A DNA stretch of 18,106 nt from a virus, in the UHGV virus genome UHGV-0176695, one strand, 5' to 3'. Of the stretch, positions 2,543 through 18,106 are shown one piece after another (the first letter of the stretch is position 1; every line of letters starts with the position of its first letter). The notes under the pieces are model-generated. The model was not told the DNA's origin and did no database searches. It worked only from the letters and a program-made list of their open reading frames with translations. The translations under genes were made by a program, and so were the position numbers.

Positions 2543-4010
2543 CAGGAATCACTCCTTTATCGTTAGCGGCATCCGAATCGAACACCAAACCGTTTTCCCG
2601 GTTAAATTCAGTTTCACGCAGTCGCTGGCGTTTTACTTCCTGCGGTGACTGCCCACGAGCACGTATCCACTCGGCCTCCGTCCCGGCACCACCGCGAAGA
2701 ATGGCCCGCCATGCTGCAGCCTCCTTCACCGGATCAATCCACGGCATCACCGGGCCAAGATAAGTTGCGTTGAAAAGCGTGGATATATCCACATCAGGGG
2801 GAATATCAAGAAAAGGCTTTGCCTGCTCCAGCCATGCCCGGTACACCGGGCGACTGTACTGACCGACAAACCACTGCTGTAAAACACCGTAGCCTTCGTA
2901 ACCTTCCACCAGTTCCTGGCGCTGCGAACTGTAGGAGCCGTTATAGTCACGGGCAATACTGGAATAACTGCCACGGGTTCCGGCAGCCACAGCCCGCAAC
3001 TGACCGTTACGGAATTCATAAAGATGAACATTCGGGCGGTTAGACTCCACCATTCCCAGATCTTCACCGGGTGCCAGTTCGTCAAAAATCATGCCCGGCG
3101 AAATATCAAAATATCGGTTTTTTTGTTCCGGAGGTGTCCAGTCGTTATCCGTCGGAAAGCTGGCTGCATCACCGCGTTTAATGTAGAAGCCAAGCGCGGC
3201 AGCAATACGGGCAGCCACTCGCTCTGATTCTTCGTAATCTTTCAGATCTGCAATCCGGCGAATCACGCCATGTAACAGACTGACACCTCTTACTTGATGC
3301 AGGCGCTTCCGCATCGCCAGATGCAGCATGCTGTCCGCCTTAACAGTTTTGAGCTCGGCGCTGAAACCGCGCAGATTTGCAGGATGATATTTGTATACGC
3401 GATATCCTACAGGCCGCCCCCAGTTATTAAGAATTATGCCCTGACGGATCTGTTGCCCTGCATTCGTATTCAGATTAACCGGAACAAAATCTGCTTCGAG
3501 AAGCTCCAGTGATAATGGCACCACAGTGGAATGATTCAGCCCGGCGACAGGTCCGCGCACCAGCTGTACAAACATTTCGCCATCACGCAAGGCGGATCGC
3601 AGCGCCATCCGTTCAGCTTCCGGACGGGTGAACATCCCCGTCACCTCCGGGCGAACGGACCATTCAGACCACAGCGACGATATCTGCTCCGCCAGTGACT
3701 CATGAAGCGTGCCGTCGCTTCTCAGTGGTTGCGGCTCGACCTGGATCCCCTGTGCGCCAATAACCCGCTCTTCCAGCTTATCCAGCAGACCAATCACGAT
3801 ATCGTGATCTTCATCCAGCGCTCTTGCCTGTTCACGTAATGACGTCCCGGCTGCAAAAACAGCAGTATCCGCCGAACGGACTTCGCGCCGGGCCTTATTC
3901 AGGCGTGAAGGCTGCGCTGCTTCATAAGCCCTCAACAGCATTTTGTTTCTGGCACGCGAAACTGCCCACCCTGGCGCAATTGCGCCAAGTGCTTTATCAA
4001 AAAAACCCAT
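2499..4010 (-). CDS. Phage portal protein (lambda gpB-like)
   Basis: 503-aa ORF; ATG at 4010 with a GAGGA ribosome-binding site; located between the gpW-like gene and the protease-capsid gene in lambda head-gene order. Its 3' end overlaps the capsid gene start by 44 nt. Confidence 0.8.
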   Translation of the reverse strand: MGFFDKALGAIAPGWAVSRARNKMLLRAYEAAQPSRLNKARREVRSADTAVFAAGTSLREQARALDEDHDIVIGLLDKLEERVIGAQGIQVEPQPLRSDGTLHESLAEQISSLWSEWSVRPEVTGMFTRPEAERMALRSALRDGEMFVQLVRGPVAGLNHSTVVPLSLELLEADFVPVNLNTNAGQQIRQGIILNNWGRPVGYRVYKYHPANLRGFSAELKTVKADSMLHLAMRKRLHQVRGVSLLHGVIRRIADLKDYEESERVAARIAAALGFYIKRGDAASFPTDNDWTPPEQKNRYFDISPGMIFDELAPGEDLGMVESNRPNVHLYEFRNGQLRAVAAGTRGSYSSIARDYNGSYSSQRQELVEGYEGYGVLQQWFVGQYSRPVYRAWLEQAKPFLDIPPDVDISTLFNATYLGPVMPWIDPVKEAAAWRAILRGGAGTEAEWIRARGQSPQEVKRQRLRETEFNRENGLVFDSDAANDKGVIPDAANDKSASSRDDN

Positions 4011-14757: not shown

Positions 14758-15030
14758 TTACCTCCAGATGCGTTGCTGGAATGTGCGGGACGGACGCGGT
14801 GGGCGTTCGGAGTAAGGGAGCCTGACGTAGATTATCCAGTGACGATAATCGAGGCTGAGGGCTTTCTTAAACTCATACCCACGTCTGCGGTAGTTATGAA
14901 TCAGCCATTCGGCCTGTTCTTCAGTGCAGGGGTCATGCTGGTACCAGTCATATTTGAATGTATGAGAACGCCGCCCGTGCCTGCTGGCAAGGTCGGTATC
15001 AGAATTGTGATGTTTGGTATTGTGCGCCAT
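14758..15030 (-). CDS. Hypothetical protein (about 90 aa)
   Basis: Track ORF 14758..15156 trimmed to ATG 15030 because the N-terminal extension overlaps the terminator at 15101-15124; weak ribosome-binding site; basic and His-rich. Start and reality uncertain. Confidence 0.35.
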   Translation of the reverse strand: MAHNTKHHNSDTDLASRHGRRSHTFKYDWYQHDPCTEEQAEWLIHNYRRRGYEFKKALSLDYRHWIIYVRLPYSERPPRPSRTFQQRIWR

Positions 15031-15100
15031 CGGTTTTCTCTGCTGGCGCAGCAGGTGCCAGTTGTTCAGGCTGGCCTGTGGATTGTAAACCAGAATACGT

Positions 15101-15124
15101 AAAACAAAAAACCCGCCGAAGCGG
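15101..15124 (-). terminator. Intrinsic terminator downstream of hok
   Basis: Minus-strand hairpin CCCGC-TTCG-GCGGG (plus 15111-15124) followed by TTTTTTGTTT (plus 15101-15110), about 70 nt after the hok stop. Confidence 0.6.
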
Positions 15125-15196
15125 GTTAAGCGCGGGTGCGTTGAGGATGCCGACACATCAGAGGTGGCGGGAGATTACTCTCCCGCCTGGTCACTC

Positions 15197-15352
15197 TTAC
15201 TTCTCAGATTCGTAGTCCACGAAGACAACAACCTCCGTCTGGCCGGTTCGGATTCGTACCTCGCAGAGGTCTTTCCTCGTTACCAGTGCCGTCACTATGA
15301 CGGTTAAACAGATGACGATCAGGGCGATTAACATCGCCTTTTGCTGCTTCAT
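15197..15352 (-). CDS. hok: Hok/Gef-family type I toxin (small membrane-depolarising peptide)
   Basis: 51-aa ORF translated by hand: MKQQKAMLIALIVICLTVIVTALVTRKDLCEVRIRTGQTEVVVFVDYESEK. ATG at 15352 with an AAGGAG ribosome-binding site 9 nt upstream. Near-identical to E. coli Hok proteins from memory. It is missing from the ORF track because it is under 60 aa. Confidence 0.85.
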   Translation of the reverse strand: MKQQKAMLIALIVICLTVIVTALVTRKDLCEVRIRTGQTEVVVFVDYESEK

Positions 15353-15560
15353 AGCCTGCTTCTCCTTGACCTTTCGGTCCGTAAGAGGCTAACCTATGTT
15401 TGTGTGGCATAGATTGGGCCTCAGATTAATGTTAAGCGTCCTGCAAGACGCGTAATGTTAACTGGGGCTTTTCTCTGTCTGCCTTACAGTGGCATGCCCG
15501 AGGCAGACAGCCTCAAGCACCCGCAGCAATCTTACCGACACCGATAAGAAAACGCTATTT
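15353..15560. promoter_or_regulatory. Structured hok leader with a mok-equivalent frame and candidate Sok antisense region
   Basis: The frame upstream of and in-frame with hok reads PLTDRKVKEKQAM, matching the Mok N-terminal region from memory, but is closed by TAG three codons further upstream. Plus-strand candidate antisense promoter: TTGACC at 15366-15371 and TAACCT at 15390-15395. Hairpins at 15436-15451 and a 9-bp inverted repeat CTGTCTGCC/GGCAGACAG at 15475-15510. Confidence 0.35.
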
Positions 15561-15807
15561 TTTATTGCCAGCACCATCTATCCAGGCTAATTTATCTGCG
15601 TCAGAACGGCGCAATGCGCTCGCCTGAGATACGTTTACTTGCCATGGTAACAACAGGTAACGGCAATTGTTGTTTCTGTTTTGTTTCCTTCAAAAACCCC
15701 GGACCATCAATCCGGGGTTTTTGTTTGTTATCCCCAGCGGCAAATCGAATACACCACCAGCGCCACCGCCATTGCAATTCCTACCGTTGTGAACGCTTCA
15801 GACCAGG

Positions 15808-16632
15808 TCATCGCAAAACATCCTCTGCACTTATCAGTTCGTTCCGCTTCAGGTAGTCCATCGCCTTATCCGGCAATTTACAGTCCGGCTTCACTTTCTT
15901 CAGTTGACTGACCAATTGCTTAACCAGCATGGTTAATTCGTCAGTCTGTTTGCCTGGTACTGGTGGATTGTCGGTTGTACCATGACTGGCAGTACAGTTG
16001 GCACTTCCTCCCTTCTCCTCCCGCAGCGGTTCAGGCAACGCATCCAGTGAAGCTTTCACAAACCACGCTGCCTGTACTATAACGCCATGAATCCAGCGCA
16101 AATCAGCATCACGATCTTTCTTTTTCATCTTCTCGCCACTTAAAGCCTGGCTTATGTGGCTGCGTACCAGGTCTTCATGTAACTCCTTCGCATCCTCAAT
16201 AGTGAAACCACCAGGCAGGCGAGCCGGGGTTACATGAGGGTTGCCTTCCCTCTGACTCTGAAGCATGGCGGCGCGGCAGGCGTTCCAGCCATCAACATAA
16301 TCAAACGTATTGCTATCGTCTGGCTCGATTTCAGCCGGCACTATCAGCGCAGGCTGGACGGCAACATTGGCAAAGGCTGCGCGCAACCCGGTTTTAATTT
16401 CTTCGATTTCATCAGAGCCAAGCGATGAGTCAGAAAGCGCATGGTGAAATGCGTAAGCCATGTCGTCGTTGATTTCTACAGGCACACTATCAGCCTTGCG
16501 GCGCTCCTGTAGCTCGCGCAGAGCCGCTGCAACATAATGACTATTGTGCTGGTCAGCCCACAGAATGAGCCGAATCAACGTTGCATTTGAAACGTATTCG
16601 TCTGTTAGTTTGCTATTGGTAAAAGTGGTCAT
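15808..16632 (-). CDS. Hypothetical protein (274 aa)
   Basis: ATG at 16632 overlaps the HNH gene stop (ATGA); long ORF on the operon strand; acidic. No family recognised. Confidence 0.6.
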   Translation of the reverse strand: MTTFTNSKLTDEYVSNATLIRLILWADQHNSHYVAAALRELQERRKADSVPVEINDDMAYAFHHALSDSSLGSDEIEEIKTGLRAAFANVAVQPALIVPAEIEPDDSNTFDYVDGWNACRAAMLQSQREGNPHVTPARLPGGFTIEDAKELHEDLVRSHISQALSGEKMKKKDRDADLRWIHGVIVQAAWFVKASLDALPEPLREEKGGSANCTASHGTTDNPPVPGKQTDELTMLVKQLVSQLKKVKPDCKLPDKAMDYLKRNELISAEDVLR

Positions 16633-16994
16633 GCCGTAGCCCCTTCTTGATATTTTTCAAACCAGAACACAACCGGGTCAGATTTCATTTCAACCAATCC
16701 CATACGAACCAGCGCTTTGCCTTTCCCGGACGCAAGGAATTCACGACGACCATCACTGATAATTCGCCGATAATCTTCCAGGCTACTGCAATGCTTGTGC
16801 AGATTGCATGGGTGGCATGCCGGAACCATGTTGGATATATCGTCACGATCCTGGTGAAGCATATTTCCAGCAAAACGAATGACCGGTTTTACGTGGTCTG
16901 CGTGCCACTTTTCGCCAAGTTCGCAGCCGCAATAAGCACAGCGACCGCCGAACTTCATGCGTAATTCTGCACGTTGTTTTTTCGTCAGTGCCAT
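16629..16994 (-). CDS. HNH endonuclease
   Basis: Track ORF trimmed to ATG 16994 (AAGGA ribosome-binding site). Canonical HNH layout: CAYCG...HADHVKP...PACHPCNLHK. Confidence 0.7.
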   Translation of the reverse strand: MALTKKQRAELRMKFGGRCAYCGCELGEKWHADHVKPVIRFAGNMLHQDRDDISNMVPACHPCNLHKHCSSLEDYRRIISDGRREFLASGKGKALVRMGLVEMKSDPVVFWFEKYQEGATA

Positions 16995-16995
16995 T

Positions 16996-17214
16996 TCAGT
17001 TTTCCTTATATGGATTAATTTTATTGTGCAGTGTATTGAACGACGCCCATACCACGTCGTTATACAATTCAATAAATAGCTCAATTATTTTTCCGATTCC
17101 CCATACCAGAATTAAAGGGGATATCGGTATCATCAACACGATAAACAGAATGAGAAACAGGAGTTCTATTACCCTGCTTTTTCGCGGATAAATTTTTTTA
17201 AATAATGTAGGCAT
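16996..17214 (-). CDS. Small membrane protein (72 aa)
   Basis: Track ORF 16996..17340 trimmed to ATG 17214 behind an AAGGAG ribosome-binding site with a 7-nt spacer; MPTLFKKIYPRKSRVIELLFLILFIVLMIPISPLILVWGIG... is strongly hydrophobic; the gene is AT-rich compared with its flanks. Confidence 0.45.
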   Translation of the reverse strand: MPTLFKKIYPRKSRVIELLFLILFIVLMIPISPLILVWGIGKIIELFIELYNDVVWASFNTLHNKINPYKEN

Positions 17215-17215
17215 A

Positions 17216-17410
17216 TCACTCTCCTTTAGTGCGGAAGTGGTTTTTCCAGCGGTTTTGTGCCGCGCTTCTGTTTCGCCAGACACCGTAAAAACGAATAGAG
17301 GACCACTCCCTAAAACCAAGATATCTATAGCGAACAACAAGTCGATTTGAGATACGAATAAGTTGCCCTGGCTTTGCTATCAGCAGTCTTGCCTTACGGT
17401 TTTTCATCAT
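17216..17410 (-). CDS. Small basic protein (64 aa), hypothetical
   Basis: Tandem ATGs at 17410/17407 behind an AGGAG ribosome-binding site; stop TGA adjoins the next ATG (TGATATG). Rich in Arg/Lys with several rare Arg codons. Confidence 0.35.
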   Translation of the reverse strand: MMKNRKARLLIAKPGQLIRISNRLVVRYRYLGFREWSSIRFYGVWRNRSAAQNRWKNHFRTKGE

Positions 17411-17577
17411 TTTGCTCTCCTGCGTTTCTTTGCTTCGCGTCGTGCAGCAGCAATACCGGTATGGCGCTTTGGTGCCGGGATGATGTTGTCAGCCATCAGG
17501 ATATTCGGCTTTGCAATTAGCGCAGAAGCCCAAAAACGAGTCGGGTACGGTAACAGGCCGATACATGCCACACGCAT
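17407..17577 (-). CDS. Small basic protein (56 aa), hypothetical; not in the ORF track
   Basis: ATG at 17577 overlaps the stop of the 159-aa gene (TAATG) and follows a strong AAAGGAGGTGA ribosome-binding site; its stop overlaps the next ATG (ATGA). Hand translation MRVACIGLLPYPTRFWASALIAKPNILMADNIIPAPKRHTGIAAARREAKKRRRAK. Confidence 0.3.
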   Translation of the reverse strand: MRVACIGLLPYPTRFWASALIAKPNILMADNIIPAPKRHTGIAAARREAKKRRRAK

Positions 17578-18056
17578 TACTCACCTCCTTTGGCGTCAAT
17601 ATTTACAGCCTGGCAAGCCTCGTTGAGCACCCAGTCAACCGCGTCTTTCCATGCTCCGGTTTCAGCTGGCGGATTCTCACACTTTACCTGTTCATAGAAG
17701 CGTACAGCCTTAACCAGTCCGTCCGGCACTGCCTGTACCATCTGCGCCCTGACCCACGCCACCCGCGACGGGTTCATATGGCACATGTTGTTCCTTTTTT
17801 CTTCATGGTAATGCCCATTACTCTCGTTAAATGGCAACACCTCATACAGCCCGGCACTTCTGAAATCAGCGTGTAATTGTTCCAGTGCCGCTTCGCTGGA
17901 GGTACCGATTGATGTGAGATAATCGAAAAGATTGGCGCATAAACCATAATTTCGAGAAAACACCCCACCTGGTTTCGCCCCATTACTCAGCCACAAATCA
18001 TAAGCAATATAAAACCCGTAAAGCTGTTGTCTGATATTTTCTTTGATGTCTTGCAT
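17577..18056 (-). CDS. Hypothetical phage protein (159 aa)
   Basis: ATG at 18056 with a GGTGA ribosome-binding site; overlaps the stop of the upstream partial gene (TAATG). No family recognised. Confidence 0.6.
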   Translation of the reverse strand: MQDIKENIRQQLYGFYIAYDLWLSNGAKPGGVFSRNYGLCANLFDYLTSIGTSSEAALEQLHADFRSAGLYEVLPFNESNGHYHEEKRNNMCHMNPSRVAWVRAQMVQAVPDGLVKAVRFYEQVKCENPPAETGAWKDAVDWVLNEACQAVNIDAKGGE

Positions 18057-18106
18057 TATTTATCACCGCCCTTTAGGGCGGCCTCCTGATGTTCTGAGGG
18101 TGCAGA
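18056..18106 (-). CDS. Partial CDS (3' end only; gene begins beyond the window end)
   Basis: Frame open from the window edge to TAA at 18058..18056 (...SAPSEHQEAALKGGDK*), overlapping the next ATG. Confidence 0.3.
   Translation of the reverse strand, partial: SAPSEHQEAALKGGDK

Follow-up and report, generated by a model that had tools for sequence, protein, structure and literature searches.

Gene organization and translation signals

The stretch of DNA analysed here (hereafter, the window) comprises 18,106 nucleotides of the viral genome UHGV-0176695, and its minus strand carries a string of closely packed genes, among which three very small ones are here called ORFs A, B and C. The features of this string are the following:

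17577-18056, minus strand: 159-aa gene, without a Pfam match, whose last codons (..DAKGGE*) hold the Shine-Dalgarno (SD) site of ORF A
17581-17591, minus strand: SD site of ORF A (AAAGGAGGTGA), within the 159-aa gene, -12.9 kcal/mol
17407-17577, minus strand: ORF A, 56 aa, family phrog_13831
17415-17421, minus strand: SD site of ORF B (AGGAGAG), within the last codons of ORF A, -7.4 kcal/mol
17216-17410, minus strand: ORF B, 64 aa, family phrog_1380
17267-17380, minus strand: exchangeable core of ORF B (residues 11-48), where identity to prophage L002 drops
17219-17227, minus strand: SD site of ORF C (AAAGGAGAG), within the last codons of ORF B (..TKGE*), -9.1 kcal/mol
16996-17214, minus strand: ORF C, 72 aa, Pfam DUF4014 and phrog_1832
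16629-16994, minus strand: HNH endonuclease gene, 121 aa from the ATG at 16994 (PF01844, E = 1.3e-6; phrog_2118, E = 3.4e-56)
15808-16632, minus strand: 274-aa gene, the next after the HNH gene in the coupled string

The junctions within this string are extremely tight. The 159-aa gene and ORF A share a single nucleotide between the TAA stop and the ATG (TAATG), ORFs A and B overlap by 4 nt (ATGA), ORFs B and C are separated by a 1-nt spacer (TGA-T-ATG), and the HNH gene starts 1 nt past the stop of ORF C (TGA-A-ATG). The initial annotation had the start of each small ORF overlapping the preceding stop, which holds for the first two junctions but not for the third, given its spacer. It had also described the three consecutive ORFs as provided with good ribosome-binding sites, and this description is borne out when SD strength is expressed as pairing energy to the 16S anti-SD: the values of -12.9, -7.4 and -9.1 kcal/mol compare with a mean of -2.3 kcal/mol over the 1754 start-like codons of the whole window, only 2.3% of which reach -8 kcal/mol or lower. 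Among the related loci described below, a strong SD precedes A in 44 of 44 unique loci, C in 100% of its unique loci and B in 68% of its loci (background, 11%), and the ORF C junction is found, together with its SD, unchanged behind different upstream genes. The SD of ORF B also codes for part of the basic tail of ORF A. On the basis of these junctions and sites, the 159-aa gene, A, B, C, the HNH gene and the 274-aa gene clearly form one string of genes with predicted translational coupling throughout.

The composition of the three products also agrees with what had first been noticed, i.e., two highly basic proteins (ORF A, pI 11.8 and net charge +11; ORF B, pI 12.0 and net charge +15) followed by a hydrophobic one (ORF C, GRAVY +0.66), whose gene is AT-rich (GC 0.35, versus about 0.50 in the flanks). 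Inside the three-ORF module, the minus strand has no promoter-like or terminator-like site, and the sole signal there is a terminator-like hairpin of 5 bp on the plus strand, which is weak and within the expectation from shuffled sequence. An Rfam scan of positions 15000-18106 gave no match in 16996-17577, the only real one being sok, downstream.

Coding capacity of the three ORFs

To evaluate coding capacity, around 185 related loci were retrieved from IMG/VR with each protein in turn, the homologous ORFs were extracted, and dN/dS was calculated in the annotated frame by the pooled Nei-Gojobori method. The resulting ratios are 0.30 (A), 0.19 (C) and, for comparisons within allele types, 0.28-0.52 (B), while the other sense frames give about 0.6-2.4. 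Frame conservation and the balance of synonymous and nonsynonymous changes, the comparisons proposed when the ORFs were first described, thus both favour coding: dN/dS is low, and dozens of diverged relatives retain the reading frames together with their start codons and SD sites, which places the ORFs beyond chance. A, B and C are therefore, as far as comparative analysis can tell, under purifying selection in the annotated frame and qualify as genuine, conserved, coupled genes. The small-gene supplement of the Sakai Ribo-seq study contained no peptide strings matching A, B or C.

It is exceedingly improbable that an antisense gene or a non-coding RNA, and not the three sense ORFs, gives rise to this signal: although the antisense frame sharing third codon positions is open over A in 43 of 44 sequences and over C in 36 of 41, with an equally low dN/dS (an artefact expected for short ORFs), it is closed over B in 63 of 66, its boundaries and starts differ among relatives (most are 37 aa long from the first start codon), it has no conserved SD, the plus strand of the module has no promoter-like site, Rfam is empty there, and the neighbours are all minus-strand genes with coupled junctions. 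Antisense coding was rejected on these grounds, and over A and C the rejection is due only to the varying starts and ends and the missing conserved SD.

Genomic context and cassette shuffling

Downstream of the string, the window carries a hok/mok/sok locus, followed by DUF968, RusA, Q, a methylase and lysis genes. The closest annotated relative, the E. coli prophage L002 (96% identical), has O- and P-like replication genes upstream, and, with RusA and Q on the other side, the module takes the place that the nin genes have in the rightward operon. The earlier view of a nin-like region is hence right as to the position between the replication genes and Q, but A, B and C are not nin genes themselves, since none of them matches the Nin families (NinB-NinH); the HNH neighbour gives a sub-threshold score to NinG (19.8 bits, cut-off 25.4). 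Taken together, it is quite probable that A, B and C are genuine accessory genes of the delayed-early rightward operon of a lambdoid prophage, lying between the replication genes and DUF968/RusA/Q.

The hok/mok/sok-type locus, a type I toxin-antitoxin system, is complete and spans 15197-15522 (minus strand), between the 274-aa gene and DUF968/RusA/Q. It includes the Rfam sok match (RF01794, 109 bits, 15350-15522), a Hok-like 51-aa ORF (MKQQKAMLIALIVICLTVIVTALVTRKDLCEVRIRTGQTEVVVFVDYESEK, 15197-15352) and an overlapping mok-like 68-aa ORF (15204-15410), and strong terminator-like hairpins are located on either side (15691-15723, plus strand, 13 bp; 15110-15127, minus strand, 7 bp). At the other end of the string, the last 45 or so residues of the 159-aa protein (..VKAVRFYEQVKCENPPAETGAWKDAVDWVLNEACQAVNIDAKGGE) are common to longer Ea22-like proteins in two related loci (L004 and L007), so that this protein appears to be a mosaic itself.

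The position of these genes is not constant. In 933W-type Stx phages, the A/B/C cassettes are found in the pL leftward exo-xis (ea) region, directly after an Ea22-like gene, and in most phages an Ea22-like gene immediately precedes A and B. Furthermore, gene arrangements vary across loci, C being often alone and B occurring also without A, and the exact trio of the window, i.e., A overlapping B by 4 nt and B followed by C after 1 nt, recurs in few distinct loci (nine arrangement entries). Comparison of these arrangements establishes A, B and C as separate, shuffled cassettes and not as one system or an obligate trio. An obligatory link between C and the HNH gene was also considered and rejected, C directly preceding an HNH gene in only 14 of the 58 distinct C contexts. 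Of 5426 complete E. coli genomes, 2582 have a match to some part of the 1.5-kb stretch.

Natural fusions of the cassettes were observed too. Among the loci and proteins L064 (1622-1849), L080 and P0178, there is an in-frame fusion/deletion that joins residues 1-32 of B to residues 29-72 of C in a 76-aa protein, as well as a 234-aa B fusion and a 111-aa A-B' fusion; such products are consistent with recombination between short conserved junctions. A 45.8-kb metagenomic viral contig (IMGVR_UViG_3300014890_000015; loci L003, L028 and L108) encodes A, B and C proteins identical to those of the window.

The A-B pair and the exchangeable core of B

ORF A belongs to a family of 80 protein clusters, almost all from Escherichia, and matches phrog_13831 over its full length (E = 2.7e-38; residues 1-56 on model positions 1-57 of 58). 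Its N-terminal half is hydrophobic and proline-rich, its C-terminal tail is arginine-rich (GIAAARREAKKRRRAK), and AF2 models it as two low-confidence helices (pLDDT 64, pTM 0.24). The most constant property of A is its neighbour: the 63 distinct contexts that extend far enough all have a B-family ORF behind A, joined to it by the ATGA overlap. Within these contexts, A and B thus constitute a fixed pair by sequence, with A never present without a B-family gene overlapping its stop.

Some A variants (P0070, P0072, P0076 and P0081) have a 1-nt frameshift after ..PAPKR, by which the arginine-rich tail is replaced by ..AIPVLRLHDAKQRNAGEQNDEKP and the frame extends 16 nt into B. Frameshifts in the C-terminal third of A affect a minority of variants, one of which (P0081) is present on 95 contigs. 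The existence of these natural variants would mean either that the arginine-rich tail of A is dispensable or that A often decays.

ORF B, whose relatives start at the second ATG (17407), also aligns with its family over the full length (phrog_1380, E = 1.1e-12; residues 2-64 on model positions 1-62 of 62), and has the invariant N4, L10, N53 and R54 and the near-invariant S21, N22, A50 and Q52 of that family. Members share both ends, namely an N-terminus of the type MKNRKA+xL and a C-terminus of the type SAAQNRWKNH..TKGE. Between them lies a core that falls into about 17 types at 50% identity, which are mutually unalignable and yet all keep an SN(R/H) motif and an open frame of 58-65 codons. 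How abruptly these cores are replaced can be seen in the comparison with prophage L002: the window is 100% identical to it through the 159-aa gene and A, up to position 17410 or so, falls to about 35% identity only over the core of B (around 17380-17267), and recovers to 97% from about 17250. The same partition is reflected in the substitution rates within types. The N-terminal 10 residues have pN = 0 with pS up to 0.18 (dN/dS 0), the core has a dN/dS of 0.5-1.1, a figure with few substitutions behind it, and the C-terminus has one of 0.15-0.49, again from small counts. All this firmly supports, on the alignments available, a B gene with strictly conserved ends and a core that appears to be exchanged wholesale between phages. 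Moreover, two tandem B paralogues are often present, and in many phages they carry different cores.

The B family is small and limited to Enterobacteriaceae, comprising 179 protein clusters at 90% identity and, at 50% identity, only 61 clusters among 1.84 billion representatives. It is nevertheless found in unrelated types of phages, including Stx phages and epsilon15-like, P1-like and 9NA-like ones. The window has a rarer core type: of 5426 complete E. coli genomes, 46 carry it, the best match being 97% identical, and none reaches 99% identity for the B allele. When GTDB species were scanned with the B profile, 32 pattern matches were obtained and one locus (Citrobacter braakii) was confirmed by tblastn, a single confirmation that is due to the use of the window allele alone for that step. 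Two distant relatives of B (P0236 and P0233) are surrounded by small, unannotated phage genes arranged in arrays, and the C-terminal extensions of distant relatives contain no Pfam domain.

As for structure, the AF2 model of B consists of a helix, three strands and a helix (pLDDT 70.7), and a search with B in BFVD, the collection of predicted viral protein structures, returned only a member of the B family. Two candidates suggested by motif resemblance were discarded by hhalign, that is, a CsrA/RsmA-like protein (probability of 0.1% against a 4-sequence CsrA alignment) and a swapped-hairpin protein of the AbrB/MazE/SpoVT kind (0.08%).

Gene calling and the C-terminal "+GE" motif

The 56-aa ORF A had been expected to escape automated annotation. 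This is not what happens: in prophage L002, the closest genome, PGAP calls ORF A and leaves out the B-family ORF (18616-18801), so that it is the 62-64-aa B that is skipped. Of the 30 E. coli genomes listed with this B allele, PGAP likewise leaves B uncalled in 14. In the original 933W record (AF125520) the homologues of both A (51 aa, locus 3630-3785) and B (62 aa, ending near locus 3445) are missing. In that same record, the L0068 gene (95 aa) appears over-extended by its GTG start over the 3' end of B, and an ATG with the usual AAAGGAGAGTGATATG junction would give a 71-aa protein. Where the A, B and C families do have names in the databases, these are "hypothetical protein" throughout.

The overlaps also bear on a motif that has been described before. 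Ea22 proteins end in a "+GE" motif whose significance was reported as unknown (PMC7093339). In the loci studied here, the KGGE, RRRAK(R) and TKGE tails of unrelated proteins correspond to the translated SD of the next gene. In 933W, the Ea22 gene (L0069) terminates in ..IKRGE* (around locus 3780-3800), and its stop codon overlaps the start of an ORF A that, like the ORF B behind it, is absent from the annotation. The "+GE" motif of Ea22 may then be explained in the same manner, as the translated SD of the next overlapping small gene. The present comparison also has some practical value for annotation, given that B and its relatives are often uncalled by PGAP and that the 933W record lacks both A and B.

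Homology searches and comparison with known systems

The families of A, B and C are all catalogued as uncharacterised phage families, and the region is an ordinary mosaic accessory region. NCBIfam is empty for the three proteins, and Pfam is empty for A and B and gives only DUF4014 for C. In PADLOC, which covers defence-system proteins and not anti-defence ones, there was no match for A, B or C at E ≤ 1. Sequence searches of the PDB gave chance-level hits for the B profile and for C (MS2 coat protein, E = 4.4; AcrZ, E = 0.24) and no match for A, and the literature search on the three families, on DUF4014 and on 933W L0066-L0068 found nothing relevant. The searches made yielded no link of A, B or C to a known fold, defence family or anti-defence family.

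Several known systems can nevertheless be compared with this one. The A-B pair with its ATGA overlap exists in 933W, where it is unannotated, and in phage Dewey, whose record lists both as hypothetical genes; the window differs from the phrog_1380 members in having the rarer core type of B. Further counterparts are the exo-xis genes of lambda and Stx phages (orf60a, orf61, orf63, orf73, ea8.5 and ea22), which are small, non-essential and early, and modulate development (PMC7093339, PMC10789677). A, B and C are small early accessory genes too, but they have no sequence similarity to any of these and are not among the genes studied in the two reports.

The composition of A and B, in turn, recalls other early phage peptides. 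The N proteins of lambda and P22 and the Nun protein of HK022 are early products of the same operons and contain short arginine-rich helices with tryptophan. The tail of A (KRHTGIAAARREAKKRRRAK) and the C-terminal helix of B (SAAQNRWKNH) resemble them, a likeness of composition only, with the difference that these motifs are C-terminal in A and B and N-terminal in N and Nun. Lastly, loci of the anti-CRISPR type also consist of small genes of high diversity that stand in tandem arrays within accessory regions, whereas the A-B-C genes have no associated HTH regulator and gave no match to a known family.

Possible roles of A and B

What could a constant small protein and a partner with a replaceable core be doing together? 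A and B would be made early in lytic growth and, given their net charges and their aromatic-rich composition, would probably bind nucleic acid or an acidic partner. The constant ends of B may supply a common activity and the variable core target specificity, a pattern in keeping with an arms race in which the opponent is either a host factor or a competing phage. A further reading, of low probability, is that B is a cassette-polymorphic family of basic proteins of about 60 aa whose 17 or so swappable cores would set the specificity in such an arms race, either in counter-defence or in exclusion between phages, with A as its obligate constant partner. In such a module the core of B would recognise a variable host or phage target, tandem copies of B would widen the range of targets, and A would serve as partner or adaptor; we consider this doubtful. 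The discrete, strongly diverged cores between conserved ends, their fast evolution, the tandem pairs with different cores, the constant linkage of A to B, the location among early accessory genes and the spread of B across unrelated phages all point in this direction. Against it, there is no similarity to the known defence proteins in PADLOC, and neutral cassette shuffling at conserved junctions could give the same pattern. Besides, identical A proteins occur with different B cores, which means that A does not co-vary with B.

It seems rather unlikely, on the other hand, that A and B are filler ORFs, of weak function or in decay, kept open mainly for coupling and for avoiding Rho-dependent polarity, with their conserved ends acting as junctions for exchange at the DNA level. 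Such an origin would account for the conserved C-terminal KGGE, RRRAK and TKGE, whose codons form the SD of the gene that follows, and it agrees with the common occurrence of frameshifted A variants, with the in-frame deletion fusions and truncations of B, and with the near neutrality of the B core in one type (dN/dS 1.1). However, the dN/dS of A, and of B overall, is well below 1, and the N-terminal 10 residues of B have no amino-acid change while their synonymous sites vary. Nor are DNA-level junctions readily reconciled with the invariant SN(R/H), G and AxQNR positions, which persist in cores that are otherwise past alignment, or with the distant B relatives of other phages, some of them with C-terminal extensions. 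With regard to a toxin-antitoxin pair, A is always with B and B also occurs without A, both proteins are basic, and neither matches a family of that kind.

Family and possible role of C

ORF C matches Pfam DUF4014 (PF13198) with 80.5 bits (cut-off 23.2; E = 1.3e-22), residues 2-72 aligning on positions 2-72, and phrog_1832 with E = 8.6e-41. Its homologues include L0067 of 933W, gp46 of epsilon15, gp39 of ES18 and HK225_057, the identity being 86% to L0067 of 933W and VT2-Sakai and about 49% to epsilon15 gp46 and ES18 gp39. It fits the profile of DUF4014 also in its length (72 aa, the family being of about 70 aa) and in its single hydrophobic segment, which comprises residues 19-37 with a Kyte-Doolittle maximum of 3.01 over 19 residues. 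The overall build is a basic N-terminus, one predicted transmembrane stretch (residues 18-41 or so) and a conserved 30-aa C-terminal tail. C is, by these criteria, a predicted single-pass membrane protein related to epsilon15 gp46 and 933W L0067. Like other members of DUF4014 and phrog_1832, it has the same size, lies in an early accessory region and is of a family often found beside an HNH gene. Position alone sets it apart: C precedes Q in the rightward operon, and its counterparts in Stx phages belong to the leftward exo-xis region. C would be an inner-membrane protein whose basic N-terminus stays inside the cell and whose 30-aa tail reaches the periplasm, and would probably act on an envelope process.

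A more specific role, that of a serotype-conversion factor inhibiting the O-polysaccharide acetyltransferase of the host, is very improbable. It derives from the label "O-polysaccharide acetyltransferase inhibitor" carried by HK225_057 and by a homologue in Salmonella phage P6, and from the fact that C is a small inner-membrane protein, as is the alpha-polymerase inhibitor of epsilon15. Nonetheless, the label has been propagated by similarity and the literature search found no experiment behind it, and the record of epsilon15 gives no such role to gp46. In addition, the conversion genes of epsilon15 adjoin the tailspike gene. C also occurs, within early operons, across E. coli phages with many serotypes. 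For the labels attached to DUF4014, both "released from the phage upon host infection" and "acetyltransferase inhibitor", the literature search found no support.

Implications

Among the three genes, it is the coupling of A to B, together with the swappable core of B, that makes the pair a reasonable candidate for work on phage-host or phage-phage specificity. If the tentative reading of a variable core and a constant partner is true, the A-B pair would represent a new two-gene specificity module, widespread in the temperate phages of enterobacteria.
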